This document shows, in pieces, positions 3,466 through 61,344 of a stretch of 64,000 nt of DNA. The position numbers were made by a program, and so were the translations under genes. How positions within the stretch are numbered: position 1 is the first letter of the stretch; each line of letters begins with the position of its first letter. The notes under the pieces are model-generated. The model was not told the origin of the DNA and made no database searches. It saw only the letters and a list, made by a program, of their open reading frames with translations. Origin of the DNA: Proteromonas lacertae (taxonomy: Eukaryota); the NCBI GenBank assembly GCA_002245135.1, contig NGBS01001167.1, positions 124,001 to 188,000 of the forward strand, in the 5' to 3' direction.

Positions 3466-5001
3466 ATATTGCCTGTAATATCATTGATTCATCATTTAAA
3501 TCCATGAATCTAAGATTCAATTCATTCTCTTTGTTGATTAATAAGTGTAAATATGGAAGTAATAGACTAAAACCTTTTGGAACCAATTGGATTATCTATT
3601 TAAATATAATACAAAAAGAATAAGAAAATACATGATAGATTAACATATTTCAATTTCAGTAAATGGAATTGATTTGATGAAAGATTCAATGAAATTAGAA
3701 GTAAGATTACATTTTGATAAATCTAATTCTCTTAAATTTGATAGTTGAGAAAAACATAATCCAAATGAAGATTGATATTGGAGTGGATAACTAACATCTA
3801 AATATACAGAAATGGTTTGAATTATACTAAAAATGAGTTTCTTTGGATTGATATTCTGAAAAATAATTAATAACATTTGAATAAATTCAAAATAAAACTG
3901 TGAATATAAAACATCATATCATCTAAATAACAATCTAATCTTTCTTTACAGTTGTGATGAATCTGAAATTTCAGTTTATCTTTTATTGATTTATCTTTTT
4001 TGTTTAATTTCATCATCAATAATATTGATAATATTCTTTCATTTGGTTTATTATTGTAAGATTTTATCATATCATCTCGAATATTTTCCCATTTATTGTA
4101 TTGTAGATAATACTCTGATGGAAATAATATTGGCAAAACTATAATTGATAAATCATTATTATATATTATTTCTTTTCTTTCTTTATACATCATCAAATTA
4201 TTATTTCTGTCTCTCAATATCTCATTCTATCTTCACTCTTCACTTTCAACATTCTTTTTATCATTTCTTTCATTTCATCACATTCTATATCAAAACTGTA
4301 ATTACATCTCAGTATATTATTCATTGTTTTAATCACACTATTATCTTCATTGAATGGTAATTTCTTATTTATCATTTCATATAATATACAACCAATTGAC
4401 CATATCACACTTCTCTCATTACATTCATATCCATTCAACTCTTCTGGGTTTTTAAAACATATATCATATATTCTCATTTCTTCTTCTTTTCTCAATATAT
4501 TCAAGCATAAATCACATATCTTTATTTTATCATCATCTTCATATATTATGTTACTACTCTTTAAATTACTAACCACTATATCAAATTCACTCAATACCAT
4601 CACTATATCACATATTGAATATATCACATCGCAAATTTCACCTCCTGTAAAGGATTTACTATAAATTATCTCTTCTAAATCTCTAAAGTAATATTTTCTT
4701 TCTAATAATATATATTTACCATATTTATTCACTTGAAACACTGTTGATGGATAGATGAAAGAGAAACAACAATCTGATAAAAATGAGTTATTTTCACAGA
4801 ATTCTGATATTCTTTTCTCTTTTATTTCCTCAATATTTAAGATTTTCATCATTTTAACATCATCTGCATACTCTAAAACTAAATCTATTTCATTATCTCC
4901 CTTTTCTACTCATTATTTCATTTACAATAATAATTCAGAGTAAATATTTGAGTATCAGGTGGTAAAAATGAAGATAATATATCATCTACAAAAGATTTCA
5001 T
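3466..5001 (-). pseudogene. Degenerate kinase-like + LRR gene, copy 1
   Basis: Kinase-fold remnants (VSNLKSSNII, KICDLCL, WSIGCILYEM) and LRR (LRELDLSKCNL). First-intron splice sites are mutated, TAA TGA lie in frame near 4908-4916, and there are several frameshifts. Confidence 0.7.
3476..4855. repeat. Direct near-identical duplication, copy A (copy B at 7691-9066)
   Basis: Sequences and ORF translations match almost exactly; flanks diverge. Confidence 0.95.
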
Positions 5002-7198: not shown

Positions 7199-9222
7199 TT
7201 AATCGTAATTCAATTCACCTAATGATTGTTCAAAATTTTCATAAAACCGACCATATATTAATTTACCTTGTCCTCTTTTATCTTCAGGCATATTTGTTTT
7301 TTCAATTCCAAAATCATTTATTAGAATTGATTTTACATCTATTTCTGGACTAAGTTCATCACCATATGATCTTAACATATACATTAATAAGAATAAAAAG
7401 TTTAAATCACCTAAGTCCATAACTTCAGATTTTTCTTTACTATACCAATCCATATAATAATCTACTAATGCTTTATTGATTCTATCTATACATTCACTTC
7501 TTTGTTTCTCATTTTCAATATCACAAATATTTTCAATCCACAGTTGGGAGTGGATAATGTATAGATAAATTTCATTAATCTGTTCATATGAGTAATCTTT
7601 CACTTCTAGTATTATATTTCTGTTAATATTATTATTTCCTCTTAGATTTATTGTTTCAATATTTGGATATTTACATAATTCTTCTGATAATAATATCATT
7701 GATTCACCATTTAAATCCATGAATCTAAGATTCAATTCATTCTCTTTGTTGATTAATAAGTGTAAATATGGAAGTAATAGACTAAAACCTTTTGAACCAA
7801 TTGGATTATCTATTTAAATATAATACAAAAAGAATAAAAAATACATGATAGATTAACATATTTCAATTTAGTAAATGGAATTGATTTGATGAAAGATTCA
7901 ATGAAATTAGAAGTAAGATTACATTTTGATAAATCTAATTCTCTTAAATTTAATAGTTGAGAAAAACATAATCCAAATGAAGATTGATATTGGAGTGGAT
8001 AACTAACATCTAAATAAATAGAAATGATTTGAATTATACAGAAAAAGAGTTTCTTTGGATTGATATTCTGAAAAATAATTAATAACATTTGAATAAATTC
8101 AAATAAAACTGTGAATATAAAACATCATATCATCTAAATAACAATCTAATCTTTCTTTACAGTTGTGATGAATCTGAAATTTCAGTTTATCTTTTATTGA
8201 TTTATCTTTTTTGTTTAATTTCATCATCAATAATATTGATAATACTCTCTCATTTGGTTTATTATTGTAAGATTTTATCATATCATCTCGAATATTTTCC
8301 CATTTATTGTATTGTAGATAATACTCTGATGGAAATAATATTGGCAAAACTATAATTGATAAATCATTATTATATATTATTTCTTTTCTTTCTTTATACA
8401 TCATCAAATTATTATTTCTGTCTCTCAATATCTCATTCTATCTTCACTCTTCACTTTCAACATTCTTTTTATCATTTCTTTCATTTCATCACATTCTATA
8501 TCAAAACTGTAATTACATCTCAGTATATTATTCATTGTTTTAATCACACTATTATCTTCATTGAATGGTAATTTCTTATTTATCATTTCATATAATATAC
8601 AACCAATTGACCATATCACACTTCTCTCATTACATTCATATCCATTCAACTCTTCTGGGTTTTTAAAACATATATCATATATTCTCATTTCTTCTTCTTT
8701 TCTCAATATATTCAAGCATAAATCACATATCTTTATTTTATCATCATCTTCATATATTATGTTACTACTCTTTAAATTACTAACCACTATATCAAATTCA
8801 CTCAATACCATCACTATATCACATATTGAATATATCACATCGCAAATTTCACCTCCTGTAAAGGATTTACTATAAATTATCTCTTCTAAATCTCTAAAGT
8901 AATATTTTCTTTCCAATAACATATATATACCATATTTATTCACTTGAAACACTGTTGATGGATAGATGAAAGAGAAACAACAATCTGATAAAAATGAGTT
9001 ATTTTCACAGAATTCTGATATTCTTTTCTCTTTTATTTCCTCAATATTTAAGATTTTCATCATTTTTAACACTTTGACATCATTTTTGAGTTGAACAACT
9101 AAATCTACTTCACTAACACTCTTTTCTTCCCGTTCTTTTATCTACATAAAATAATTTAATGAAAATACTTTAGTATCAGACAGTAATATTGTTGATAGTA
9201 ACTCATCTACGAAAGAATTCAT
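7199..9222 (-). pseudogene. Pseudokinase + LRR gene, copy 2 (frameshifted; pseudogene or assembly error)
   Basis: Intact first exon and intron (ATG 9222); kinase-like ORF 8425-9072 lacking HRD and DFG; LRR ORFs 7810-8088 and 7199-7735; frame breaks near 8425 and 8099. Confidence 0.6.
7691..9066. repeat. Direct near-identical duplication, copy B
   Basis: Matches 3476-4855. Confidence 0.95.
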
Positions 9223-17521: not shown

Positions 17522-18921
17522 CTATTTTGTTTTCTTTTTTGCAGAAGCTGTTTGTCTTTTCCCAGTTGTTATTACACCATGAGCACTATACAAAACATAA
17601 TTGATATGGATATACTCATTCCAAGCAGTATATTTTGCTAAATGTCTTGGATCTAGACTTGGACCAACCTAGATACATTTACATAATATTATATACATTC
17701 TTCATTGCTTTTTCAAAATCACTGTACTTGATTGGAGGTATATTTTCTGGTAAAATCTTTGACACATCTTTATTTCTTATCTATTCATTCAATATATATC
17801 ATACAGACTATTAATATAACAATATATACAGGTATAAAGGCAGCTTCTCTACATAATGCAGTTAAATCACTACAAGAATAACCTGATGTTTCATCAACCA
17901 ACTATTAATATAAAATAATAATATAACAATAAAAATATACAACTTTAAATTCTCCATCACTTATTTTATATTTTTCATTCTTCAATAAATTATGTATTAA
18001 ATTATTTCGACATTTATTATCTGGTAATGGAACTAATATTCTTTTACTAAATCTTCGTAAGACTGCATCATCTAATTCCCATGGTATATTCGTTGCTCCC
18101 ATTACTAATAAATGATTCTCTATTTCATTAGAATTAGAATTATCATTATTTAATCCATCCATTTGAACCATAAATTCAGTTTTCAATCTTCGACTTGATT
18201 CATTTTCACCATCTTTTCTTGATGTCAATAATGAATCAATTTCATCTATGAATATTACTGAAGGACTCATTTTTCTTCCTAATTCAAATAAGGCTTTTAT
18301 TAACTTTTCACTTTCACCCATCCATTTCGATGTTAAACTTGAAGCACTTACACTAAAAAATGTAGCATCACTTTCTGTTGCTACTGCCTTCGCTAATAAT
18401 GTCTTACCTGTTCCTGGAGGTCCAAATAATAATATTCCATTTGGAGGTTTTCTTAATCCAGTAAATAAATCTGGTCTTTTTGATGGTAATATTACTGCTT
18501 CATCCAATGCTGATTTGGCTGTTTCTAAACCTGAAATAGATGAGAATGGAACATTGGGATTGTTTACTACTAATTCCTGAAGCATTTTCTGTTCAAATTC
18601 ATTAGCAGGGTTTATTTTGCGTTTCACAATTGGCATATTTTTTATAGACTCTGCTTTTGATACAAAAAAATTCAGCTGTTGCAACCTTATTGCATATTCT
18701 GGTAAATTTTGTGGTATAGCTAAAATAACATCTTTAAAATGTAATACTTTTTATTCTATTCATTAACGCTTCAGCAGTAGATGTGTATTCTCTATTGGCT
18801 TCCTTAAACAAACCATTTCTTTCAAATTGCTGTCCCTACACTAATAGATACAATTATATACATTTATATTAGCCTGATTTACTAGTACATCTAGTTGTGC
18901 CACTGATGGATTTATATTCAT
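17522..18921 (-). CDS. Spastin/fidgetin-family AAA ATPase with MIT-like N-terminus, paralog 1
   Basis: GPPGTGKT, LTSKWMGE, FIDEIDS, SRRLKTEF, GATNIPWELDDAVLRRF; multi-exon. Confidence 0.9.
17731..18582. repeat. Inverted repeat arm A, 852 bp (arm B at 39304-40155)
   Basis: Reverse complement matches arm B including introns; one amino-acid difference seen (LDE vs LNE). Confidence 0.95.
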
Positions 18922-20538: not shown

Positions 20539-21846
20539 ATGAAGAATTTGCTAATAATCTTTTTTTGTTATATATCATTATATTTGTGTCAAGAAATTCC
20601 AAATCCCAACAAAGAACCACTGAAATGTGGGGATTATAGAGATATTACAATAGGTTCAATATGTGACCCAGATAAATATCTAACATATGATCAAATAAAA
20701 GAGTATTAATAATTGTTGTCATTGTAATAGAGAAATGTCAATAGTAAACCAAATTCAAAATAAATACATTATACAGTGTAAAACCCCAAGAAATGTACAA
20801 GTTGGAATAGCTTTACTAAAAACATATACAGATGGTAAATCAATAATAAAGAAAGCAAAAAGTATTTATGATTCATGGGGTATTGGATATGAAGACTGTG
20901 GTTCAGGAATATTACTACTACTGTCCGTAGAACATCATAAATTTCATGTTGTGACAGGTTCAAAAATAAAACAAAAATTAACAGATCAATTAGCTAAAAG
21001 AATCTTGGGAAGAATGACAGTAGAATTACAAAATGAAAATTACCATAAAGCAATAATGATATTCTTAAATGTATTATTATTATTATTATTATATATAAAT
21101 AGTGTACAGATGAAGTTTTGAAAAATGGTGATTTAAAAGAAGATGTAAATTACTTTTCTGTATTTTGTGTGTTTGGATTGATATTTGCAATGATTGCATT
21201 TATCTGTAATGATTATTATAAATCACAAAAAGAGTAATAATATATATATATATATTTAAATATATATATTTAAATATAATTATTTAATAGACAAAAACAA
21301 TTTGAAAAATTATTAACTTCATTAAAACAGATAAAAAGACAGAAAGAACATCCTGAGAATTATGAGTGTAATTCATGTCCTATATGTTTAGAAGATTTTG
21401 ATGATTCTAAAGATATTATTACATTGTTGTGTGGACATAAGTATTGCAAAGAATGTCTAAAGAAATATTGCGAAAGTGGGAAAGAAAGCTGTCCAATATG
21501 CAGAAGAAACTTATTTTCTAATGAAGAACAAAAGCGAGATGATGATTCTTCTGCTCCTTCAACTTCGAATGATAATTGTAATAATAATAGTAGTACAATC
21601 CCAGAAGCAGCGAATAACATTGACTCAGAATTGTATTTTAGATTTAATAGTTTGAGAAATATACACCCTGGTTATATCAGTAATTCAACAATAGAAAGGT
21701 GGCGTAATAATAATTTTGAAGAAGATTTTGTTGTTGAAGAAAGAGAAATGCCAATGAATCACACAAGAGAGTATAACACTTCAGATTATTCTGCTTTTGG
21801 AGGAGGCAATAGTAATGATAGTGGTGGTGCTAGTGGGAGTTGGTAA
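20539..21846 (+). CDS. Signal peptide + TPM (MOLO-1-like) domain + TM + RING finger, paralog 1
   Basis: IPNP...CG...SICDPDKYL, YDSWGIG..CGSGILLLLS, TM, CPICLEDF...CGHKYCKEC...CPICR, C-terminal GGASGSW; three introns. Confidence 0.85.
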
Positions 21847-32584: not shown

Positions 32585-33228
32585 TTATTTTGAAAGTTCA
32601 TCTGGCAAATTTCCATTTATTATACCACTCTCACTCACACCTCTCTCAATAACATTAATATGAATATATACAGTTTCAGTAGGCTCTGTTGATAAATCAG
32701 GCCTACTTTCACTGGAATATATTAGAGCTGGATCGACTAGTTTTGGATAACCTCCAACAAAGAAACACTTAAACTGATCAAACCAATCACCTAGCGGTCT
32801 ATATAAATGACATTCCATATCATGAGACCCAGGTATTACAGGCATAGGAATAACACCATAACCAAGAATCTCCTTTCTTCCATAAGTATCTTCATAAACA
32901 ACCTATATGAATAAATAAATATTTGCAATACTGTCATTCCCAGTTTTGGCCATCCAATTATATCTGTCATATTGTATTGTATATCGATTAACACATTCCA
33001 GTAAGATCTTCCATCCAACTATGAATATTTAATTATAATATTATACACCAGGTTTTGATAAATGCGAAACACCATAGTTTTCTCCCTTTATTATATCCCA
33101 AGTGGTATCACCACATTTAAACTCCCAATAACACCTTAAACTATGACTTTCTGATGAGCAGCCAACAATTTCACCAACGAAATACACTATTGGTCATTAG
33201 ATTATGATTAAATAATACCTTCAGGCAT
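32585..33228 (-). CDS. B9D2: B9 domain-containing protein 2 (ciliary transition-zone MKS module)
   Basis: Spliced MPEVYFVGEIVG...GWPKL...D.YGR.E.LGYG...PG.H...C.LYRPLGDW...FFVGG.P.L, colinear with B9D2. Confidence 0.88.
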
Positions 33229-37418: not shown

Positions 37419-38643
37419 TTACCAACCACCACTAGCACCACAACAACCTCCTCCACCACAACTCCCACCACCACAACTTCCACCACCACCTACATATCCT
37501 CTTCCTCTATTATTAGAATTATTTGTTTCATATATTATAATAATATCATCTTTAAAATCATTACTACGCCATTTCTTTATTGTTGATTGATTTATAGAAT
37601 TTGGATAAATTGTATTCAAACTACATAATCTAAAGTATATTTCTGAATTTATTTTATCAGCTGCCTCTGATGTTGAGTTGTTATTATCACTGTGATTATC
37701 TTCATTAGCAAATGCATCACTTCTGCATATTGGACAATTTCTTATTCCATTTCCATTATATTTATTAAGGCATTTTTCACAATATTTATGTTGACATGAT
37801 AATATAATCATATTCTGTTTTCCATCAAATTCTTTTAAACAAATTGGACAGGAATTACATTTATAACTCTCATGGTTTTCTTTATACGTTTTGATTTGAT
37901 TTATCGATTTTAATATTTCATCAGTATGTTCTTTCCTACATAATAATATAAATGCTTATACCTCTTCTGTTTATTATAACATAGAAAAACAAATATTATA
38001 CAACATATAAATATTGTTACTAAATCTCCTATTTTTGATTCTTTATTAGAGTAATAATTCTTCATTATTTCATCTACACTCTATTACTATAAACTATATG
38101 CAATTATACATTTAAGAATATTAATATTGCTTTATGATAGTTGTCATTCCTCAATTCTTCTTTCATTCTTTCCAAAATTCCTTCGGCTAATTTATCTGTT
38201 ATTTTATTTTTTATATTTGCACCAGTTACTATATGCATTTTCCTATATTTTATTGATAAAAATAATAATATTCCACTGTCACAATATCTACTTCCAACGC
38301 CCCATGAATAGTAAATATTTTCAGCTTTTTCTCTAATTGATTTACTATCTGCATATGATTCTAATATAGCTACTCCAATTTGAATATTTCGACCATTCAT
38401 TTCACATTTTATTCTATATTGATCTTGAATTTTGTAAATATATGACATTTCTCTATCAATATTATTATTATATTAATACTCACTTAGTTGCTCATGTGTT
38501 ATGTATTTATGCGGGTCACAGATTGAACCAAACACTAAATTGTCGTAATTACCACACTGCTGAGGTTTTTTTTTGGGATTCGGTATATCTTCACTTATAC
38601 AACAAGATATAAACCATAAAAGGACAATTGATGAATATTTCAT
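37419..38643 (-). CDS. Signal peptide + TPM + TM + RING protein, paralog 2
   Basis: IPNPKKKPQQCG...SICDPHKY, YSWGVG..CDSGILLFLS, CPICLKEF...CQHKYCEKC...CPICR, Gly/Cys tail ending GASGGW. Confidence 0.85.
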
Positions 38644-38963: not shown

Positions 38964-40795
38964 ATGAATAGAAAAAACATAAATAAAGAAGAATTAACAC
39001 AAAGCATATATCAAATGAAGTGTGAAGTATAAATGCTATAGATATATGTAATAGGCAAAAGCACTAGAGAATAAAGGTAATTATAAAGAAGCAGTGATTA
39101 TATACTCAAAGATTTGTTCAGTGTTGATGAATTATACAAAGAGTATAACTATAATATTTAGAAGAATAGATCTTCCTGAAAATTCCCCAGAAAGAAATGA
39201 AAAGTTGAATCTAATAAATGGATATGTAACATATGCAGAAAAAATAAAGAACATAAAACAACAGAAGAGAGTAATACCAACAAATGAATTTGAGCAGAAA
39301 ATACTTCAGGAATTAGTAGTAAACAATCCCAATGTTCCATTCTCATCTATTTCAGGTTTAGAAACAGCCAAATCAGCATTGAATGAAGCAGTAATATTAC
39401 CATCAAAAAGACCAGATTTATTTACTGGATTAAGAAAACCTCCAAATGGAATATTATTATTTGGACCTCCAGGAACAGGTAAGACATTATTAGCGAAGGC
39501 AGTAGCAACAGAAAGTGATGCTACATTTTTTAGTGTAAGTGCTTCAAGTTTAACATCGAAATGGATGGGTGAAAGTGAAAAGTTAATAAAAGCCTTATTT
39601 GAATTAGGAAGAAAAATGAGTCCTTCAGTAATATTCATAGATGAAATTGATTCATTATTGACATCAAGAAAAGATGGTGAAAATGAATCAAGTCGAAGAT
39701 TGAAAACTGAATTTATGGTTCAAATGGATGGATTAAATAATGATAATTCTAATTCTAATGAAATAGAGAATCATTTATTAGTAATGGGAGCAACGAATAT
39801 ACCATGGGAATTAGATGATGCAGTCTTACGAAGATTTAGTAAAAGAATATTAGTTCCATTACCAGATAATAAATGTCGAAATAATTTAATACATAATTTA
39901 TTGAAGAATGAAAAATATAAAATAAGTGATGGAGAATTTAAAGTTGTATATTTTTATTGTTATATTATTATTTTATATTAATAGTTGGTTGATGAAACAT
40001 CAGGTTATTCTTGTAGTGATTTAACTGCATTATGTAGAGAAGCTGCCTTTATACCTGTATATATTGTTATATTAATAGTCTGTATGATATATATTGAATG
40101 AATAGATAAGAAATAAAGATGTGTCAAAGATTTTACCAGAAAATATACCTCCAATTACATTTGAAGATTTTAGATTAGCATTAACAACAGTATGATATGA
40201 TTTATAATATTTAATGTTTTTATTTCTATAGATTCGTCCAAGTCTGAATGATTCTACTTTAAATAAATTTTATGAATGGAATAACACACATGGAGTTGTA
40301 GAAAATAAAAGAAATAATGATAATAATAACAAAAAACCACCTTCTCCTCCTACATCTAACAATAATAATCCAAACTTTCCACCACCAAAAGAAAATGGAA
40401 TATTTTCATTTATTAAAAGTGTTTTTAAACCATTAAATAATGATAAACCTTTACCACCACAGCCGCCACTACCACCACCACAACAGCAACAACAACAGCC
40501 AGTTCAACAAATACAGTCTTTATCTTCTTCATTACCATCAAATCTTCAATATCAAAATCCTCCATACTATAATCAACCAATATCACCTTCATTTCCTTCA
40601 GCGCCATCATTATCATCTTCATTACCGTCTAATTTACACCAATCCTATCCATCACTTCCTCTACCTTCATCAATACCACTTCAACCAAATCAAATGAATA
40701 GATCAACTTCACTAAATGTTATAAACAATCCTCCTTCATATCAAAATCTGAATCAGTCATGTACTTTATACCCTAATAATAGTGCTCAATATTAA
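38964..40795 (+). CDS. Spastin-family AAA ATPase paralog 2 with Pro/Ser/Gln-rich C-terminal extension
   Basis: AAA core identical to paralog 1; last exon 40232-40795 is open for 188 codons and low-complexity. Confidence 0.9.
39304..40155. repeat. Inverted repeat arm B, 852 bp
   Basis: Reverse complement of 17731-18582. Confidence 0.95.
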
Positions 40796-42144: not shown

Positions 42145-44654
42145 ATGAAATTAATAGGCTTCGTCTGTCTTTTTTTCTCCGTTCATGCTTTCAGAGCATA
42201 CTTAGCAACAATACCTAATTCTGCTGATGGTATACTAATCATATATCAATAAATATAGTTCCTTGTCCTAATTATTCAAGCTGTCTTGATAAAAAAACAT
42301 GTGGTGCACCAGGACACAAAAATTGCATAAATGGTGAGTTAGATTCTTTTGGTATACATAATTCAATATATTTTATGTTATTAGGAATTGATTGGAGAGA
42401 TGGACCAAAGAAAAATACCACTGGTTGGAGAATAATAGAAGACTTCCAGAAGAGAGGAATAAATATCACTACAACCCCAAGAAGATGGAGTGAATGGTTA
42501 TGTCTTCAAGATAGTGATGGTGATGGTAGAACAAATGGTGATGAATTGGGTGATCCGTGTTGCACATGGAATTATGAAGATACTCCTCTAAGATCAAAAT
42601 ATCTAAGTCATCCAGGTGATAAATCAAGTGTAACTATACAACCGTCGTGTTATTTGAATGGTCTACCACCAGAACCAGTTATAGAAACATTTAAATCAGG
42701 TAAAAATCAAGTTTTACTGAAATTGAAATTACAGTTAGATTACTGTATATGTCATTATGAATTTGATATTGATAATCAGTATAGTTATTGTAATTATTAT
42801 ACATATAGACATTATACTACTTTATCCTATTCAGACATAGTAATACCCAATCTACAGTCAAATCACACATATAATCTAACAATAAAGAGTTATAACTTAG
42901 CTGGATATTCTAAAGACATAATTTATCCAATAAATACAGTTAATGAGAATAATGAAGTAGATGATTTAGAATATGACAATTATACTGTAAGTCATGCAGG
43001 TACAGTGGAGCCATGGATTCTATATGATCCTGATGTAGTAATGTCATTTTATGGAATTCTAATAACAATATTAATGTTTGAAATTCTGCTAAGATTAGTG
43101 AAAAAACCTTCAAATAGTATATACAGATTCTTCAATATTCGAGTAACTAAAAGGTTCAATTTAACACCACTCACTATCATCATTTCATTCCTGATATCAT
43201 CAGCATCGGTGTATTTAGCATATGCAACAATGATAAATGTATCACATATGAATTACCCATATTCATATTCAGACGGATCATTATTAAGAGGAATTGGAAG
43301 GTTTGTAGAAGTATCATTAGGAATCGTGATATTGCCAATCAATAAAATGACAATCTTAAACAGGTTATTTGGTTGGACAATTGTTAATAATTACCGTCAC
43401 CATAAACTGATGGGAGAAATAATATTTTTCTTTATTTTTGTACATGCTGTTGGAATGTTTATGAATTATTTTATATCTACAGGTTTGACATTGATATTCT
43501 CATTGAATGGTGATGAATATGTTATATTATATGCAATGATTGCTTTCTTAATGTTAATTATTAGTGCTATAACTACAACGAAATGTATTAAGAAGAATTC
43601 ATATACTTTGTTTTATTATGTATATATATATATATATATATATAATTTCTTCTAGAGTCATTTGTTGTTATATCCGTCAATGGTATTACTTTGTCTTCAT
43701 ATTCCTAATTTAATATACATCTTATTACCAGGGTTTATATTGAAAATAATTGATGGCTTTAATATGTTATATCAATTGTTATGGAAAGCCAATGTATTGG
43801 ATATAAAGACATTATCATTTCCACCAACTGACTATATTAAAATAAAACTAAAAAAATCATATTTTTCATATACACCTGGTCAATTTTGTTATATTTCTAT
43901 ACCAGATATTCAGTTTTCATCTCGACCATTCTCTATTGTTTCTTCTCCTTATCATAATAAAGATGAAGTTACTATCTATATACAAGTGAAAAGTTTATGG
44001 AGTAAGAAGTTGTTGAAATATATTAATACTGAACCTACGTTTTGTATATTATAATTTTTATAATAAATAGTGATAAGAACAACTTCAAATCCAATTTCAT
44101 CATCTTCTGAACATTTATTATCGGATCATTTCCCTCCTTTGGCTTTTAATAAAGTATTTCTATATGGATGTTATAATTATTTGAATATAAATCCTAAAGA
44201 TTATCGTTACTTGTTATTCATTGGTGAAAATATGGAATCTATTCCAATGTTCTCGATTTGGAGTAATCTATCAGCTGATACTGAAATATGTGATAGTTTT
44301 ATTGAATGTAAATTTATTTGTACAATTAAAGACACATTTCTATACTCAGAATGGAAGGAGATAATACAGAAAATTGTTTTATCTCATCCTAACTTTAGTG
44401 TAGATTTTTATTCTTCCAATCCACCTCAAACTCAATTATTTAACATTCAATTACCTATTAATTTGAATTTACCAAATTATAATTCGATTATTGGCAGTAT
44501 TGGATCAAAAGCAAAATCGAATAATGATCATTATGTTGGTGTATTTGTATGTGGCAATGAAAAGAGGTTAAATAAGATACAAGATATATGTGAAGAATAT
44601 AATTATGATTTGGATGTAGAATATGATTTGTATTTAGATACTTTTACATATTAG
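42145..44654 (+). CDS. Signal peptide + temptin-like domain + FN3 + ferric reductase/NOX-like TM, FAD and NAD(P)H domains
   Basis: IPN...GH.NC...FG.DW...W...LC..DSDGDGRTNGDELGDPCCTW...SHPG; NLQSNHTYNLTIKSYNLAGYS; heme His pairs HKLMG...VHAVG and SHLLL...CLH; PGQF, RPFSI, VFVCG. Confidence 0.85.
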
Positions 44655-49433: not shown

Positions 49434-52400
49434 CTAATTATGTTTTTGTTGAGTTCTAAGAGTAGTTGTATGAGTTATCTTAGAAGACAAAAATGCAGAT
49501 TGTGACAATAAACTTGAATTGGGCATCTTACTAAGTGATGTTGTTGTTCCATGAACTCCTGTTGTTCCTAATGAACCATTCACTCCAATATGTTTACTAC
49601 CAGACTCAGTTGTAAGGTTTGCTGTTTCATCCAAATACAAATTAACCAATTTAATACCATACTGCAATATAACCATCAACCAAATGATTAATTCTGTTCC
49701 TAATGTTCTTAACAGCAATATTGAATCTGGTTCACTACTAATGCTGAAATCTAAAGCAACCATAACTCCTCCTAATAATGTCAATATCAGCGTGGAAATA
49801 AACATTCCAATACTATCATTCTGTTGATTTGCAGCATTCTTTGTTTTTCCTGTTAAATATATGAGGACTAATAATAATAATCCATCTATTACCAATTCCA
49901 CAGTTCTAATAAAATTAAATTAATAATAAACAATATATAAATACAAGAATGGAGTTGAGACTGAACATTGACGAATTGAAACATCTACGAAGTATGATGA
50001 ATATTTTGCAGTTTCAAGTGGCTCATATTTTGGTACATCAGCTAAGAACCATATCATTACAATAATAATCTCTAATAACATAAAACCAACATAGAATATC
50101 ATAACTCTTATCAAAGTAATACGTGACTATTACAATTAAATTAATAAATAATATATATTTATACTTTCACTATCATCTTATGGTTTCTGATGTATTTACG
50201 ATATATTTTAGTTACTTTTGCATAGAACAAACCTAAAATACCTTTAAATGCAATACCAACAACAGCTACACGAGCTACACAAATACCATTAGTATCACTT
50301 GGTGGAATAATAAAAGTTAACACAGACAATGAGCAGAATATTAAATGGATTGATAAAGTAAAAGCATAAGGTCTTCCAAATGCTCGAATTACTTGTTTCT
50401 TCTGTTTGATAATAGTAAACACTAATGCCAGTAAGGAAAATAAAATACCAACTGCCATCATTAAATAACAAACTGCTACAATAGAACCACTAAATTCAAA
50501 TAAGCCTTTACTTTTACCAAATTTGGAATAATCAGGTAAACCTTCTGGATATGGTCTTGGCTCAATCAATATACTTTGTCCTGTATCAGGATATACTTGT
50601 AAATAATCACCATTTGCATTTCCTTCCATTATAAATATATTTCTCTGTAAATGCAAACTCTCTTCAACATATACTGAACCACTTGGTGCTTTTACATCTT
50701 GGCCTATTATACAAGATCTAAGATATTCAATTGGTGGAATACTACTTCCACTATCTTCAGCTGCTTGAATCATTGCAGATTTCCATATATCAAAACTAAC
50801 TTTAATATATTCCATTTCTTGTAAAGTCTCTGCTGTATTACCTAAATTCTCTTGCACATCACTTACAAATGCTTCAGATAAAGATGTTGTTAGAAATGAT
50901 GAATAACTTACAGTAATCAAACTTCCAGGCATTCCAGTTAAGAATCCATCACTATAATCTGATCTTGTATATCTAATAAGAATGGCTATATATTCGTGGA
51001 AATTAATTCCATAATCTTTCAGTGCTTGTAATGTGAATCGAGAAGAATTACCATCCAAGAAATATAATACTATTTATAATAAATAAAAAAATAAAAAAAT
51101 ATACAACATATTCTTTTACCTGTTGTTTTTGAACTAGCTATTTTTGAAACAATTGATTTATAATAACTCGTATCAGTTCTATTTGATTCAACAGTTATAT
51201 AATTCACTTTAGCATAATTCTCTTCCTCTTTTAATACATGTTGAGCATTTGTCAAATACTTTTTCATCTTTGGATCATCAGATAAAATCAATAAGAAATC
51301 ATTAACACCTTGAGTTGTCATATAAGAAACAGAAGCACGAATCTTTTGATAAGCTGTGTTACCAGTAACTAACATATTCTTACTTGACATATAACCTTCA
51401 GAAATACCAGTATAAATAAAGAACATATTCAATCTTTCTGCTTCAGCTAATACTGTCTCTCTACATGGATCTCCTCTACATCCCATATATAATATAATAT
51501 TTGTATCATTTTCAATCTTGTGAATTTCATCAATAAAATCTTGAGCTGTTGTACCAAATATAATAATTGGTTGAATATAATAACCATTGATTTTATTATT
51601 ATTAATATCATTAATTAAATACTCTTCTAAAGTTAATATTCTCATTTCTCTATCATGTGCAGCAGATGAACCATCATGGAATAATGCTATTTTCACTGAA
51701 TCATATGTAAATTTTTCACCTTTATCAGTAAAATCACAAATATACTGTATATTCTTTCCTTCAATTAATGGATTATAAGCTTGAGCTACTTCTGGTTGAG
51801 GTGAATAACTTGTTACTCTTGTTTTACCATTTCCAGATACTTCAAATCCATAAATTACACGATTAGAAAAACCATTTGGATTAACAACTAATAAACCAGA
51901 TGGTGTTGTTGTTGATAAGCCATACAGGGCTGTTCTTACTTTATCAGTATCGAATGAAAATGATGTTTTTGCTGCTTCTGCCCATACCTTCACACTTGTA
52001 TAAGCTGCTTCTAAATGTTGAGTAAAATAGGATCCTTCTCCATACAAATCATTCATTGCAGTAACAAATGAAATGGCAGTGTCTTGTCTTGTTTCATCAT
52101 CTGATGTAGTCAAACCCATATCATTTGTGAATGTTGCTAACATTCTATAATGATTTAGACATTTGGATGGAATTGATTTTGCATGTAATTGTTCCATAGT
52201 CAAGGAATACATGCTATAACCTGCATCAGGATATATTCCGTATTCACAATATCGATTAACAGCCTCAATAACATTATCTATTGTTATAACCATTATAATT
52301 GCACTTTTCTTTCTTATACTTTCTGGAATTGCCATAAACTCAGTCATGTTTTGATAATTAACAGCATAAATATTTAATTTTATTTGATCGGCATAGTTTA

Positions 52401-55400
52401 AGAATGATTTCGTTATGTTAACAGAGAATATTGTACTATCATATACTACAATAAAAGTATCTACTCTCATTGATAAATATTTCTTCACAGCTGAAACCAT
52501 CTGATAACTTATAAAGCCAAATGAAAATGTATTCTTTGAACAAAATTCAGCAGCTGACATAGCAGGATAGAAATATAAAATATCATATTTAATAGCTATT
52601 TCAGATATTTCTAATTGTTGTGAATATCTTGAACTTCCAAACAAAGCAACAACTTCTGATAATTTTCCTAATTCTGTTGCATAATTGACGTAATTCTCTA
52701 ATTCAGATTTACAATCACGTACTTGTGTCAATATCATTCTATCCAAAATACCACCAGCATTATTCAACTCTGTTACTGCAGCTTTAATACCACTTAATAT
52801 AAGTCTATCAGTACTTGCTAATGCTCCACTAAAACTGGTTAACACACCTATAGTAACTGTTGATTGTCTTGCATATTTACCAATTCCTGGACGTGAAAAA
52901 TCACATATATAGTATCCATCGTTCATTTCAATCTTCCAAGGATTGGATGAAACAGGGGAAGAACTTTCATATATTTTTTCAAAGTCATTTGATCCTTTTT
53001 TATGATAACCAAATCGAATATAATGAGTCATATAATTATTGGAATTAATTTTGATATTTCCTTCTGGTGCATCGAAATTAACAGTGTATAAAGCTTGTTG
53101 ATATTTTGAAAATACTACAGTATTCATTTTAGTCACAGCTTCTGCCCATAGATGGAAAACTGCATATAAACTTGACATTCTTTCTGTTATTGGATTCTTA
53201 GTATATTGAGCTACTCTATTAACAAATGCTGCATTTGTATCACCATCTATTGATTGGAAATATGATTGTATTGAGTAGAATGGTTGGTTGTTTGCATCAC
53301 TCATTGATTCACCTGTTGTATATGATATTATTTTGTACTTTTCTGGATCTAAGTTTCTATCCGAATAAGATTTATCAATATATTTATGTAAATTATCACT
53401 ACCAAATAACAAAATAAAACATGCTTTTGATCTTTCAGTTATTGAAACAACAATACCATCAACTTCTTCTTGTGATATTGTTGATGTAAAAGTTCTTGTA
53501 AGAACAATTGTTCCACCTAAATTTCTCACTACTTTTTGAGCATATTGATTGGCTCTTGAACTAGCTTCATCGTATGTTGATAATATTGCATAAGCTAATG
53601 TACTTTCATCTGTTACATCATTCAATATATTCACTACTCTTTCTACAATACTTGGCTCTTTATTGGCATAGATGATGTTATTCTCACATGATTCACCAGG
53701 TGACATACCAATATGTATAATTGGAATATCTCTTTTCTCAACTTCTGATTGAATGAAAGTGATGCAATCAATTGTAGCAGTAGTAATAATTAGATTGATT
53801 GTGTTATTTACATCATATTCAAGATTTTTTGTTAAAGTGTCGGAACATGTTTTATCATCACTACCAATATCAATATCAGTTACATATATTCTATGTCCAA
53901 TTATTCCACCTTGAGCAACATTGTATTCATCCAGTAATATACTCATTATACTTGATAAACCTTTATCCATTGATTGTTGAATACCTGTTAATGATGTTGC
54001 AAATAATATATTGATTATATCAATGTCATATTCATATTGACCAATTGTATGATCACATATTTTGCCATGTGTTTCTTCAATATCCCAATTCCAAGCCATT
54101 GGCTCGATTAATATATCTTGTGAATAGACAATATCAAATTTTCGTGTTTCTACATTGACTTTTCCTAAATAGAATGGTAATGATGCATATTGATTTTTAT
54201 TCAATTTCAATATACCAGATCCAGTCTCATATTCCATTCCCATTATCGCTTTTCTCCAATCTTCAGTTTCTAAACTATTCGCTTTTAAAACAGCTCTATA
54301 CCAAAATCTCATTCCTGCATATACTGAACTTTCATATGCTGAATTTATTTCTTTTATTGTATATTCAATAGAAGCTAAAAGGAATGCATTTGTTTCATTT
54401 ACTTCATCGAAATAATAACTTGGTTCATAAACATCAACATAATCGTTAATAGGAAAATCTAATATTTCTCTATCAGATCCAAAACATATAATTTGTATTT
54501 GATGTCTTGACAAAATCTTCTCGTTTAATGCAACTATAAATTCATTTAGTGGATCACCAATCAAAGTTGAAATAATAATACCACCAGTTGGTAAATCAGC
54601 TAATACTTTTGTTACTAATGATCTAGCACTTCCACTCTTACTATCTATTCTATATTCACCTTTTATTTCCATTATATCTTCTACTTTGTATTTCGTTATA
54701 TTAAGTATCGTATCTGTAAATTCAGGAGCAAAATCTGATGATCCAACTAATAATATTTTGTCATATTCTGATATTACCTTCAAATATGATATAAATTGGT
54801 CAAACAATTGATTTGCTACAGCTCCAAAGTAATAGACACTCGAATAACATTCTTGACCTTCATATGTTTGTGGATAAAACAAATATTTATTTACTTTTTG
54901 TAATTCTTTAGCAAATGCAATACGACATTCAGATACATAACAACCAAAGAAAACTGATACTTCATCATCTTCAGCTGCTATTTTTGCTATTTTTTCATAA
55001 TCATTACCGTATGCTGAAGGATCATATATTTTGAAATTTAATGTTTTACCTATTACACCACCTAAATCATTAATCTTTGATGTCATTGCAATTAATAAGT
55101 TTAAGCCATATAGTTCAAATGGAGAATCATTATTTTCCACAGAAAATATTGCACCAATGAAGTAATTATCTTCCTGCAATTGTTCACCTCTTACTGCAGC
55201 TTTTGTATCCCAATTACATGATAACTTTGGAACAACTGGATCACTAGATTTCCAAGGATTTGGTGCAGTAATGTCAGATGAATGATATTCATAAGCAGCG
55301 TTTGCTTCAAGATAACCTGTTGTTTCATTTTCTATAATCTGACACATACTAATTGAGAAACTCATATAATTGTTAGTGAAAACTTTGACATTTCTTCCTC

Positions 55401-58400
55401 CTTCAACAATCATAGCATTATGAATTGCATCTAAAGCATCAGTGAATGAATAAGGAACTTCTAAACCTTCATAATCATTAAACTGAATATTACTAAAAGC
55501 ATTTTCAAATATCTTTGCAGCTAAAAATACATTTTCACTTCCATGAGTTGTATTAACTGCAAATGAATATTCTTTATTGAATATTTCTCTTACATCTGTT
55601 AATGGATAATAATCTTTATGAAAACTAACCCAAATATAATGACCAATCATATATTTACCATATGGACCATCAATATCTACTCTTCTCACCTTTTCAGATA
55701 TTACTGTAAACTTATCGGCAGTCATTCCTAAATCATGCATTGCTTTGAATATATCGAATCTAGCATTACCATTTAATAATGACAATATTACACCGCTACT
55801 CATTTTAGATTGTAATAAAGTCAATATTTTTTCCATATCATAACCAGTAATTGGAATTTCAATAACAGCAACTGGAGTAACTGATCTAATTCTTAATTCA
55901 CCCTGTATATACTGCATTATAGTATTTTGAGAAAGTTTATTTGTATATAAAATAGCAATATTAGATTTATCAAATGTAGAGACAATCCAAGGAATATATG
56001 CTGTTCTAAGAGAGAAAGGCATTCCACAATATATAATATTCTCTTTACATTCAAAACCTTCAAAATCATGAGGATAAAACAAGATAATACCATTCTCATT
56101 CAAATTTTTAGAAATTTCATTTCTTGTAAATGAATCATAACATCCAAATGCAATTCTTGTGTGATATAATCTCTTCATGTCTTTAATAGTTGTATATATA
56201 TCTTCATCATCAGTCGAATCAATTACTAATGGACTAATATATCTTTCTTGAATACCACCTTTTTCATTAATCAAGTCAAAGCTAGACAAGAATGAATAAA
56301 CCATTTCATTTCCTATATAAGCATCAGCATTTGATAATGGTCCAAATATAATCACATTAAATTTCTTTTCTCTAATCTCACCTTCTCCTTCATTTCTAAA
56401 ATTACATATATACTGTTCAGTAGTTGAATCAGAAGTTAAATAAAATGTCTCTGCTGGGAAATAACTTGATAATTTATTAACCATAACAATATTTCCATCT
56501 TCATCACTTGTCATTATTGAAATCTGTACTTGTATATGAAAATCTTTATCAACTGCCAACTCACCAAAAGATGTCTTTATTTTATTATTTAATATATAGT
56601 TTCTAACAATTTCATAATCATCATTCAATGTATTACCCAAAACATCAATTATAAATTCATATCCTAAAATAGCACGAGATTGAACTGATGTTGGTACAAT
56701 ATTATCACCAAACACTTTACTCCACAAATATTGTATATATTCAGCATTATAAGCATAACTACTAACTAATAACAAATTACCAATTCTTAAAGTTGAATTG
56801 ATATTTGTATAAATATCTATTCTATCAGTTACAATAACATATTTATCAGTATAAGCATCAGAACTTGAACAATCTTTGCTTTTATAACTTTCAGAATTGC
56901 ATATTATTTCATTGAATGTAGTATATAAATATTCAGAATATTTATCCAAATAATTAAATATAACACCACCATCATTCATGTATCTTAATACCTTAGCTAA
57001 CACTCCAAATATTTCTTTTTCTACATCTTCTTTACTTTTACTTTCATCAATAACAACATCTACTGGAGTATAATAACCACTTTCTGATAAATCTTTTATC
57101 AGAATATCATGAATAAGTGAATTATTGAAATTATCAGCCATTATGACAAATGCAACAAGTGGATAATTATCTGATACATAATTTAATAGTGGAAATATTT
57201 GTTGATAAGGAGATAAACCTAAATTCAATGTTGAATCATTACAAGCTGATGTTTGTTGATCTTCTGCAATTAACATAAATGACTTGCTCAATTTTCCAAT
57301 ATATTTATTATTCACTTCTGCAGAACATGCACTTATAATGAATCTATATGATTGATTGAATGACCTTTCAATTGCTTCTTCATCTTCACATAAAGTCCTT
57401 TTCAATTCATAATTTAAACCTCCAAAACCACCTTCTTCATTGGTAATATCTTGATATTCACTCATTAAGAAGTATATTGATTCATCATATTTATCATGCC
57501 AAACTGCAAATGTATATGTCTCTTTCTCATATATTGTATCACTAACACCTTCATCAAAATCACAAACTTGATTTTTATTACTTATCTATTAAAATTAAAT
57601 AAATATATAAATATGAATAAATACTACAACAGAAAATGGTGATCTATCAAACATATGATTCTGATATAACAACAATGAATCACTATCACTACCAAACTTA
57701 TGAATATTGAAATAAGATTTCATTACATTGGAGGTAGATATTTCAGTTACACCATATGGGGTATTTTCTGATAGTTTATACAACTTATATCTCAATTCAG
57801 CAGATGATTCAATATACATATTTCCCATGGCTGTACTTACTAATGTCATTGCATTAAAACTATAAATAAATAAGATAGATAGATATATACGCAGCAACAG
57901 AATCTTCATGCATTTGTATTGGCAAATCTGCATAAAACAATTCAATTATTGATTTCATCTGAGTATTTTCAACAATATCTTTATATAATGAATAAGATGA
58001 AATATAATAATAACCTTCATAATTGCTTTTATTTTCATATATAAAATACTCTGGATATAATAAATCTAATATAACTACTGGATAATCTTCAGCATCAAAA
58101 CCCCAATTACGCATATTATCTACAAATTCACGTGTCTTACTTCCTAATAAAGTATAAATTGTAGTAGAATTGAATTCTGACTTTAATGTTGTTAAGTTTG
58201 TTTCTAATATATCAAAATCAATAAAAGGGATAATCTCACAATTATAAGAAGCATATGTCTTAACAACTTTGTACAAATAATCAGCAATATCAACATTTGT
58301 ACTATATATATAATATAATAATAATAGATACGTAAAATTATCACTAATAATTCTACATTCAGATTGTCTAGCTGAAAAATAACCAAACATTGAAAGTGCA

Positions 58401-61344
58401 TATTGGTGAGGAAGTCTACCAATTTGGATAATTTGTTTATCACAATCTTCACCTTGACTTTGATGAATACTAAATAACAATTTATCTTGTTCAGCTAATA
58501 TTGGTTTTATTGCTGCTCTTTCTTCTTTAGTAAATTACAATTAAAGAAATATAAAATTACAATAAAACAGTAAATAAATAAAAAAAAGATATGATGTTGT
58601 TCCAATATAACATAATACATCAGTTGGATCTATACCTTTCATATAATTAACCATTTCTTCAATTGAATCAAATGGTGGTACAATTATTTTAACCATATTT
58701 CCAGCAATGCCTCCTTGAGAATTCATATATTCACCTATTTGATTAGCTGTATATCCATAATAATCAACTCTTTTACTATTCAATTCAGTTTTCACATATA
58801 TAAAATATATTATTTTCACAGTCAAATGATCTAATTTACCATTTACCCAATCACAGTAATCAGATGGATCATAAAAAGCAGGTGCAATTTGTGTACCTTT
58901 TGATTTTGCTGTTTCATGAATTGTTCTATTTACAACTACACCTGAATGGAATAAATAACTAACGTAACCAAAGGTACCAACATAACAATGACCACCAGGA
59001 CCATCAAAATAACTATTTCTTGCACCTCTATATATATATATATATATATATGATAATGTAATAATAATATATAATAATGAATAAAATATACAATAAAAAT
59101 GATTGTAAATTATCAGTTCTTCTTGCTCTATTGAACGATCTTGACATAATAAACGCTGTTGAATACAATTGTGCCATATTTGAAGTGATTGGCCCAAAAT
59201 AATTCTCATTTCTCACTTCTCTTCTTAATTCTTCACTTACTTCAGAAACCATTGTATCAAAGTAATAACTGACAACATAATGGCCATTGGTAGCTTCTTC
59301 ATCAATCATTTCTAACGTTTCTTCATCTAAAACATAGGATATAATATGGAATTTATCAGATGTAATATTCCATTGTTTTACAGCATTAAAGAAATTGACA
59401 TAATAACTTCTTTCTAATACATTAATTACATAACAACCTTCTTCACACCACGATTTAATCTCACTACAAGCGTTTTGAGCGTTTTGTTCAGTATTATCAT
59501 CTAAATAAAACGGTTCAGCATCTAACATAATTCCATTTTCTTCAGCACTACTTGCAATAATATTGGATGCATTAATAGAAGTAACACTATTACAATATAT
59601 TATCATAATATGTTTCATTTCATATAATTCCATTGTCGATCTCCACAGTGTTTGTATATTAACTCCCATTGATAATACTCTGTTATTACATTGTTCACCA
59701 CCTGTTATACTGTAACTAATAATAGGAATATCATAATTCAATAATTTAATCATATCATTTAAAATATTATCTGGACCAAAGTATAATATTGCAATTACAT
59801 TGAATTTTTCATAATATTTCTTTATATCATTCATTACAGATTCACTACCTTTAGCAGCATCCACAGGAATAGTTAATGTTTTAGTTTCTAAGATTGGTTC
59901 TTCATTATTTATTTTATCTAAAGCAGCATCAATTGTATATTGTACTCCACCAACTAATTTCTTTGATGGACCTGATAAAAGTGTAATAAATAGTACATAT
60001 TGATAAGTAGACCTAAAATTAGTATCAGATATTAAAAAATCACAGAGTAATTCGATTGGCTCACCATTTAATTCTTTTTCTTGAATATCATTACTTATTG
60101 GAAGAGTTCTATATGGTTTATCAGCTAATTTATTTGCACCACTATCTAAAATTACTTCATAACCATCTACATTGCTTACAAGGACGTTATTCGATAATAA
60201 ATAATAATTAATTTCATTAATAGTCCTAACTTCATTATATAAACTATTGATAACCATTTCTGGATCTGTTATTCCTTTTTCTTTTACTTCAGTTAAATAT
60301 AACAATAAAAGTTCATAACTATATGAATAATAATATATAATAATAATTTATATATATTTATACAATATTTTTTCCTCTGTTGTAAAATCATCTATTGATA
60401 CTTTAGCTGGAAGTGTAGCTGGAGCAGATGGAGATGGTCGATTATCTATTACATCATCATATGCAGTTACAAACGCAGTGTCTTTAGAAATATCAAGTGA
60501 TAATATTTGTGAAGCCATATAAAATGAATATTTACCATCTGCATCTCTAGTTGTAGGGAAATGAGAAACATCTCCAGATGAAAACTCTTGAAAGGAAATC
60601 ATGGTTATATTTAATACCTCTGTTGATATATAAGTAGCAACAGGAGTAGTTTCATCAGCTGTTAATAGGTTTATAAATATTGCTTCATCGTTTTTAAATT
60701 CATCCAATACACTTTTCCATAATTTATCATCAGCTGGATCTAATTTGATAATTCTGGTTAAATTCATTTCACTTGTTTGAAAGAATTTTGTGTAAACATC
60801 AACACAAGCTTTCATATCGCTTGCTTCAGAATACATTAGTATAAAATTTGTGTAATTGTTCCAATAATAATTCATATCTATTAAGAAAATGTAGAAATTT
60901 TACAATCATACATTGAAATGACGAATCACACGTCAGATAACCTCTAACTATACGATTATAACATATTGGAAGTGTTCCAAGCACTGAATTAACTATGTAC
61001 ATGTTATATTGGTTATAAATTTTGTTAGATTCCTCAATAGCACTCATATTACTTCTTATACCTTTATATTTAGTAAATACAACACCGCATTTACCTGATT
61101 TCCCTAGACTGGTAAAAGTATCAAGATTATCCTTGTAACTAGTTGTCCCAAATTTCTTAACCTTCATATTATTCTTATCCTTAATCCCCATCGATTTAAA
61201 TAGGGCTTGACTTATATAAATGAACACATCGGCGTACTGGTCATCTTCAAACGCAAAACATACATTATCCAACTCTATATCATCATCTGTTTTACATGTA
61301 CATAAAAAACTAAACAACACGATAAATAAGAATAACGATTTCAT
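49434..61344 (-). CDS. Giant class C GPCR-like receptor: signal peptide + 9 tandem UrtA/AmiC-type binding domains + 7TM (about 3830 aa)
   Basis: Introns 60878-60911, 60319-60363, 59028-59091, 58530-58592 (AT-AC), 58302-58331, 57860-57890, 57586-57624, 51070-51104, 50127-50164 and 49906-49944 leave 11493 nt in one frame. Repeats of about 385 aa; class C 7TM motifs (CVAR, AKVTKIYRKY, W...P, KTKN...ND). Confidence 0.9.
58530..58592 (-). other. U12-type (minor spliceosome) AT-AC intron, 63 nt
   Basis: 5' ATATCTTTT, branch-like TTTCTTTAAT about 10 nt before the terminal AC; removal restores IGTTSKEERAAIKPIL and deletes an in-frame stop. Confidence 0.85.

Follow-up and report, generated by a model that had tools for sequence, protein, structure and literature searches.

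An AT-AC intron with U12-like splice signals in a bacterial-type domain of a class C GPCR-like receptor gene

The closest described counterparts of the intron reported here are the minor introns of Blastocystis. In subtype ST1, 346 U12 introns among 35,412 (about 1%) and all four minor snRNAs have been reported (Gentekaki et al. 2017, PMC5608401), and a later survey lists 253 U12-type introns in Blastocystis, 77% of which are AT-AC (Larue and Roy 2023, PMC10639083). The ST1 table of the former study (PMC5608401, supplement 32) contains at least 284 introns that start with ATATCCT and at least two that start with ATATCTT, and the 29 ATATC introns among those listed end in AC (15), AG (12), AT (1) or AA (1) (PMC5608401). 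According to the cited sections of the latter, there is very little to suggest that minor introns have newly arisen outside Physarum; for the Blastocystis introns, recent gain is raised there as no more than a possibility (PMC10639083).

We analysed a 64,000-nt stretch of DNA (the window; all coordinates are positions in it) with a GC content of about 26%, in which an AT-AC intron interrupts a receptor gene. One AT-AC intron in the Blastocystis group would be ordinary in itself. Since the domain that it interrupts appears to be bacteria-derived, this intron would not come from the eukaryotic ancestor and its site would be a datable gain, and the receptor family would record how the intron was later lost and how its 3′ dinucleotide changed.

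Placement of the host rests on one gene of the window, INO1, whose best named match is Blastocystis sp. Blastoise (66%). In a quick INO1 tree (51 rows; 50 of the 120 matches listed, P0015 left out), the window sequence forms the deepest branch of a group that it makes up with Blastocystis sp. Blastoise and four other rows (SH-aLRT 97). A gene for a B9-C2 ciliary basal-body protein lies at 32585-33228 (-), and Blastocystis is described as having lost nearly all cilia genes (PMC12129017), so that a flagellated relative of Blastocystis is a possible host. If the host is such a relative, the range of the minor spliceosome would be extended to it.

Boundaries and splice signals of the AT-AC intron

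The stretch 58592-58530 contains two in-frame TAA stops, which rules out read-through, and the reading frame continues once 63 nt are removed; an unspliced transcript would run into a stop inside module 3 and encode a truncated receptor. All 4,444 excisions that keep the frame and leave no stop were scored with a profile built from twelve other modules. The AT-AC excision ranked third at 50.6 bits, preceded by two slides of 51.1 and 50.6 bits whose ends are not spliceosomal; it exceeded the next AT-AC excision by 6.4 bits and the best GT-AG excision by 12.3 bits. GT-AG alternatives were rejected: the best of 23 ranked 332nd of 4,444 (38.3 bits) and keeps T-rich intron sequence in the exon, and none of the 25 slides of the 63-nt excision has GT-AG ends. 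P0124, an intronless relative with 65% identity, aligns gap-free over the spliced junction, and it can be taken as a genomic open reading frame because it reads on into what corresponds to the next intron (intron 5). On grounds of sequence and homology, a real intron with these boundaries is confirmed.

Table 1. Features of the receptor gene and its AT-AC intron
Feature	Position	Strand	Remarks
Receptor gene, 11 exons, 3,830 aa	49434..61344	-	start codon and first exon called manually
GT-AG intron 2, 45 nt, phase 2	60319..60363	-	in module 1; site homologous to intron 6
GT-AG intron 3, 64 nt, phase 2	59028..59091	-	also in P0184 and P0183; absent from P0182, P0135, P0130 and P0128
Upstream exon	58593..59027	-	end of module 2 and start of module 3; last letters TC of Ser870
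Module 3, UrtA-like Venus-flytrap	57568..58864	-	about aa 780-1157; in one clade with P0135 module 3
AT-AC intron, assigned to the U12 type, 63 nt	58530..58592	-	fourth of the ten introns; splits Ser870 in phase 2
5′ splice site ATATCTTT	58585..58592	-	U12-like; T instead of C at +6
Branch-site-like TTCTTTAAT	58540..58548	-	adenines at -13 and -12 relative to the 3′ end
Downstream exon	58332..58529	-	resumes after the AT-AC intron
GT-AG intron 5, 30 nt, phase 2	58302..58331	-	present in 6 tree rows, absent from 7
GT-AG intron 6, 31 nt, phase 2	57860..57890	-	column and phase of module-1 intron 2
Intronless exon, 6.5 kb	51105..57585	-	modules 4 to mid-9; P0001 is a 38%-identical long ORF

A preliminary description of this DNA had given the same sequence, coordinates, length, AT-AC ends and phase-2 position in a Ser codon, all of which stand. 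It had also assigned the split codon to the Ser of a G.xxS..R motif. A Ser codon is indeed split, but it is not that of the conserved motif Ser: in the G-x-x-T-S-x-x-R motif of UrtA-type modules, the split residue immediately precedes the conserved Ser and is T in UrtA.

U12 branch sites follow a TCCTTAAC-like consensus near the 3′ end of the intron. The branch motif found here, TTCTTTAAT, is two C-to-T changes away from TCCTTAAC and weaker than that consensus, and the donor ATATCTTT differs from RTATCCTT by one mismatch, at +6. Both signals are U12-like, as had been proposed, but each departs from the consensus quoted in the preliminary description (ATATCCTT for the donor and TCCTTAAC for the branch). 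Neither ATC[CT]T at +3 to +7 nor TC[CT]TTAA[CT] near the 3′ end occurs in any of the 90 predicted GT-AG introns of the window, while the looser [CT]TTAA[CT] is found in 8 of them. The AT-AC intron is 65% T. The splice signals, together with homology, support its assignment to the U12-type class, in agreement with the preliminary description. The next intron downstream starts with GTATCT, a start unique among the 90 predicted GT-AG introns, and is without the U12 branch motif.

An ab initio intron model seeded with the ten introns of the receptor gene predicted 91 introns in the window, 90 of them GT-AG and one the AT-AC intron. When the model was trained without the AT-AC intron and AT-AG, AT-AT, AT-AA and GA-AG ends were also allowed, 99 introns were predicted: 97 GT-AG, the AT-AC intron again and one AT-AT call at 63899-63865, which was discarded because it bridges a frameshift in a helicase motif. 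With this artefact removed, the AT-AC intron is the sole non-GT-AG intron predicted in the window, as originally noted, and it is longer than most local introns (window median 34 nt; only 2 of 91 are at least 63 nt, the other being the 64-nt intron 3 of the receptor gene). The frameshift itself, at about 63860 (-), falls in a T run within a conserved DEAH-helicase motif and is probably an assembly indel. At a U12-type share of about 1%, as in Blastocystis, one such intron in 91 is expected in the window; the probability of at least one in 91 is 0.59 on the count of 346 and 0.48 on the count of 253. An Rfam search of the 64-kb window gave no match, a result that is confined to the window and says nothing on the minor snRNAs of the genome.

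The receptor and the origin of its modules

The manual gene model contains ten introns of 30-64 nt and a single terminal stop, and encodes a hydrophobic N-terminus, nine Venus-flytrap modules of the Peripla_BP_5/6 type and a 7tm_3 domain. Pfam scores are 49.2 bits for 7tm_3 (cut-off 33.5), with a second part at 17.9 bits, and 477 bits for Peripla_BP_5. The predicted protein has the make-up of a class C GPCR-like receptor, 7tm_3 with a large N-terminal binding domain. Its architecture of nine UrtA-like modules joined to 7tm_3 may merit separate study.

The nine modules are only 7-18% identical to one another, and in the module tree, which includes one bacterial sequence only, modules 1-8 cluster by position with the modules of relatives. 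Three alignments put introns 2 (module 1) and 6 (module 3) at one column and in one phase, although these two modules are only 13% identical. The AT-AC intron has no counterpart at the matching column of the other eight modules in module alignments, as the preliminary description had stated, and a module-level search of the window, P0001, P0134 and P0135 found it in no module but module 3. Its presence in only one repeat had also been read as a mark of youth, a use that does not hold at such divergence between repeats and with eight of the ten introns of the gene likewise confined to one position. The 6.5-kb intronless exon adjoins an intron-rich 5′ part of the gene, an arrangement that fits 3′-biased intron loss.

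The best matches of the long exon are UrtA proteins (402 bits over 5 stretches, below the cut-off of 492.75), and matches of the modules in the PDB are bacterial UrtA and AmiC (7s6f, 8hic, 7s6e, 1qnl); Pfam ANF_receptor gave no match to the long exon of the window. P0125, a protein of 3,745 aa from a compositionally different eukaryote, carries nine near-bacterial, far less diverged UrtA modules together with 7tm_3. The receptor domain was likely imported from bacteria. In that case the intron postdates the eukaryotic ancestor, and its origin after import of the bacterial-type domain is plausible and the best reading of these data. The earlier proposal of a de novo gain in a bacteria-derived domain thus survives as a gain after import, with modules that match UrtA, and loses its claim to recency (see below).

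A fusion of 7tm_3 to a solute-binding-protein-like ectodomain is likewise described for class C GPCRs of anaerobic gut fungi, whose binding domains resemble those of prokaryotes (Seppala et al. 2016, PMC5168858). The receptor of the window differs in having nine tandem type I, UrtA-like modules in 3,830 aa, as opposed to the type II sugar-binding ectodomains and N-termini of 200-1,600 aa given there (PMC5168858). Within a literature search that left most subscription journals outside its scope, no paper was found on Peripla_BP_5 together with 7tm_3, and nothing was found on a minor intron in a bacteria-derived receptor domain.

Elsewhere in the window, two near-identical AAA ATPase genes, which we take to be spastin-like, lie in opposite orientation with identical introns at 17522-18921 (-) and 39127-40795 (+), and paralogous genes with TPM and RING-like domains, also in opposite orientation, at 20735-21846 (+) and 37419-38643 (-). 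A near-identical duplicate of kinase-like and leucine-rich-repeat-like sequence occupies 3640-4909 and 7810-9141 (-), about 4.2 kb apart, and a Temptin_C domain is fused to a ferric-reductase/NADPH-oxidase-like membrane protein at 42228-44654 (+).

Relatives with a break at the same codon

A HMMER search of 1.84 billion representatives returned 18 matches and a profile search 7, four of them new; cluster look-ups added further members, and the 21 homolog clusters looked up are all Logan ORFs. Among 78 proteins, 34 read straight through the site, the upstream motif is missing from 31, and in the remaining 13 the site carries an S-YL read-through. These 13 proteins represent three genes, P0184 (65.5% identical), P0185 (27%) and P0151/P0183 (26%), which together with the window make four carriers known, outside the window, from protein read-through, P0184 and P0185 revealing the 5′ end only. 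All four carriers have the YL start, of the +6 T type, and not the consensus YP. Among the 90 GT-AG introns of the window, YLFF would be expected on read-through from one and YLF from two.

In P0151, a 20-residue in-frame insertion sits at exactly the codon equivalent to Ser870. When two reading frames of the intron in the P0151/P0183 gene are combined, only one offset fits over 15 residues; it gives TTCTTTAAT and an AA end, so this intron is probably of the AT-AA kind, the AA being the part that the frames give. In its start and branch 9-mer it matches the intron of the window, and both are 60-63 nt long. P0138 (41%) has non-homologous residues up to the same codon and is compatible with an AG end. 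In P0133, non-homologous residues give way to homology two codons ahead of the site, which might reflect an intron that has shifted or an artefact of the contig. Ten relatives are without an intron at this codon. The split residue is Ser in the four carriers and in intronless P0124 and P0182, and Thr in the other eight intronless rows, a pattern that would be compatible with one gain or with two. Two metagenome scans for homolog DNA yielded 281 and 160 pattern matches, none of which was confirmed as a related locus, and a search of a protein atlas gave no usable match.

The preliminary description had proposed that the intron was gained recently, and had itself named sharing by distant homologs as evidence to the contrary. 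Such sharing is what we find at the protein level: because relatives at 65.5%, 27% and 26% identity break at the same Ser codon, a recent origin is not supported. Human Blastocystis subtypes have an amino-acid identity of 65-75% in the comparison given in PMC12129017. A recent de novo gain restricted to a single species, or an assembly artefact, is accordingly the least credible of the explanations considered, and we give it almost no weight; the absence of the intron from 65%-identical P0124 and the presence elsewhere in the window of at least one probable homopolymer indel speak for it, but P0184, which is equally close, has the same read-through start, and homologs at 26-27% identity break at the same codon.

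Number of gains and comparison with described minor introns

A careful tree was built from 20 rows, leaving out P0133 (unclear) and P0137 (a near-duplicate of P0179); P0138 was included and counted separately for losses. The four carriers fall into two clades, and their grouping as one clade is rejected (AU p about 1e-109). Under plain parsimony, three changes suffice, whereas a single gain entails six losses, or seven with P0138. The neighbouring GT-AG introns 3, 5 and 6, whose states were scored by eye from ORF ends, require 2, 4 and 2 losses under a single gain and are all shared, in a patchy way, across distant modules. Since these neighbours are also patchy, with several losses each, repeated loss appears normal in this receptor family, which favours one gain over two gains or a transfer. 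On balance we consider it fairly probable that the AT-AC intron with its minor-type signals was gained once, in the ancestor of module 3 after import, and was then lost many times, even though its six losses exceed the two to four of its neighbours.

Two independent insertions, one in the clade of the window, P0184 and P0124 (with loss from P0124) and one in the clade of P0151 and P0185, would need only the three changes against one gain and six losses and would accommodate the rejection of the carriers as a clade, and Ser in the carriers, P0124 and P0182 with Thr in the other eight rows would fit a target site having arisen on two occasions. They are opposed by the equal patchiness of the three GT-AG neighbours, by the agreement of both introns in start, branch 9-mer and length, and by P0138, on whose account the intron may go back to the base of the group; a transfer between paralogs, the related alternative, is countered by the lack of a visible conversion tract and by flanks of P0151 that resemble its own clade. 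We therefore hold it to be unlikely that the intron was made twice at one codon of the imported domain, or moved between paralogs only about 26% alike, with the 3′ dinucleotide (AC, AA, AG) varying afterwards. Were this the case, it would show directly that new U12 introns continue to arise at preferred sites in the Blastocystis group. Quite improbable in our view is an intron older than the Blastocystis group, which the founder module or an ancient eukaryotic receptor would already have carried and which the other eight modules and most lineages would have lost. The GT-AG position common to modules 1 and 3 implies that some introns predate module duplications, the almost intronless exon of modules 4-9 suggests wholesale loss, and the layout of nine modules and 7tm_3 recurs in P0125; yet across the window, P0001, P0134 and P0135 the intron is seen in module 3 only, and modules that match bacterial UrtA, with no ANF_receptor match, make descent from the last eukaryotic ancestor unlikely. 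Very little credence attaches to a real intron spliced by the major spliceosome despite its AT-AC ends, or to a degenerate minor intron in a host without a minor spliceosome: the off-consensus donor and branch and the 65% T content would suit either, but the major donor pattern of the host is missing, both U12-like signals are present as against none in 90 major introns, and the branch motif is kept in a 26%-identical homolog.

A single gain followed by losses implies the following course of events. A bacterial urea-binding-type domain would have been imported into the ancestor of the receptor, the AT-AC intron would have been gained once in the ancestor of module 3, and many descendant genes would have lost it by precise deletion. 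In minor introns the donor and the branch are read by U11 and U12, and the choice of the 3′ site depends on the branch, with AC, AA or AG tolerated. By this known chemistry, U11 would read the donor of the present intron and U12 would pair with its branch motif, leading to removal by the minor spliceosome. With the 3′ end set by distance from the branch, the terminal pair could vary among carriers: AC here, probably AA in P0151 and possibly AG in P0138.

The U12 introns of Blastocystis ST1, as far as the cited sections describe them (PMC5608401, PMC10639083), resemble the intron of the window in their AT-AC ends, ATATC-type donor and pyrimidine-rich branch, in being longer than the short major introns, in their share of about 1% and in their flexible 3′ dinucleotide. 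The two differ in that the host here is AT-rich and in the +6 T of the donor, which is rare there (at least 2 as against at least 284); the window intron is also longer (63 nt vs. a median of 39 nt), its branch is more distant from the 3′ end than those of the ST1 examples, and it sits in a bacterial-type domain, which would make it datable. Minor introns that end in AT-AA are described in plants and animals (PMC10639083) and are paralleled by the P0151/P0183 intron, although the AA end of the latter is deduced from two reading frames alone. Physarum polycephalum, as cited in PMC10639083, likewise has minor introns created after the eukaryotic ancestor; there the expansion was genome-wide, whereas here a single intron occurs at ordinary density (1 of 91), old in its family and often lost.
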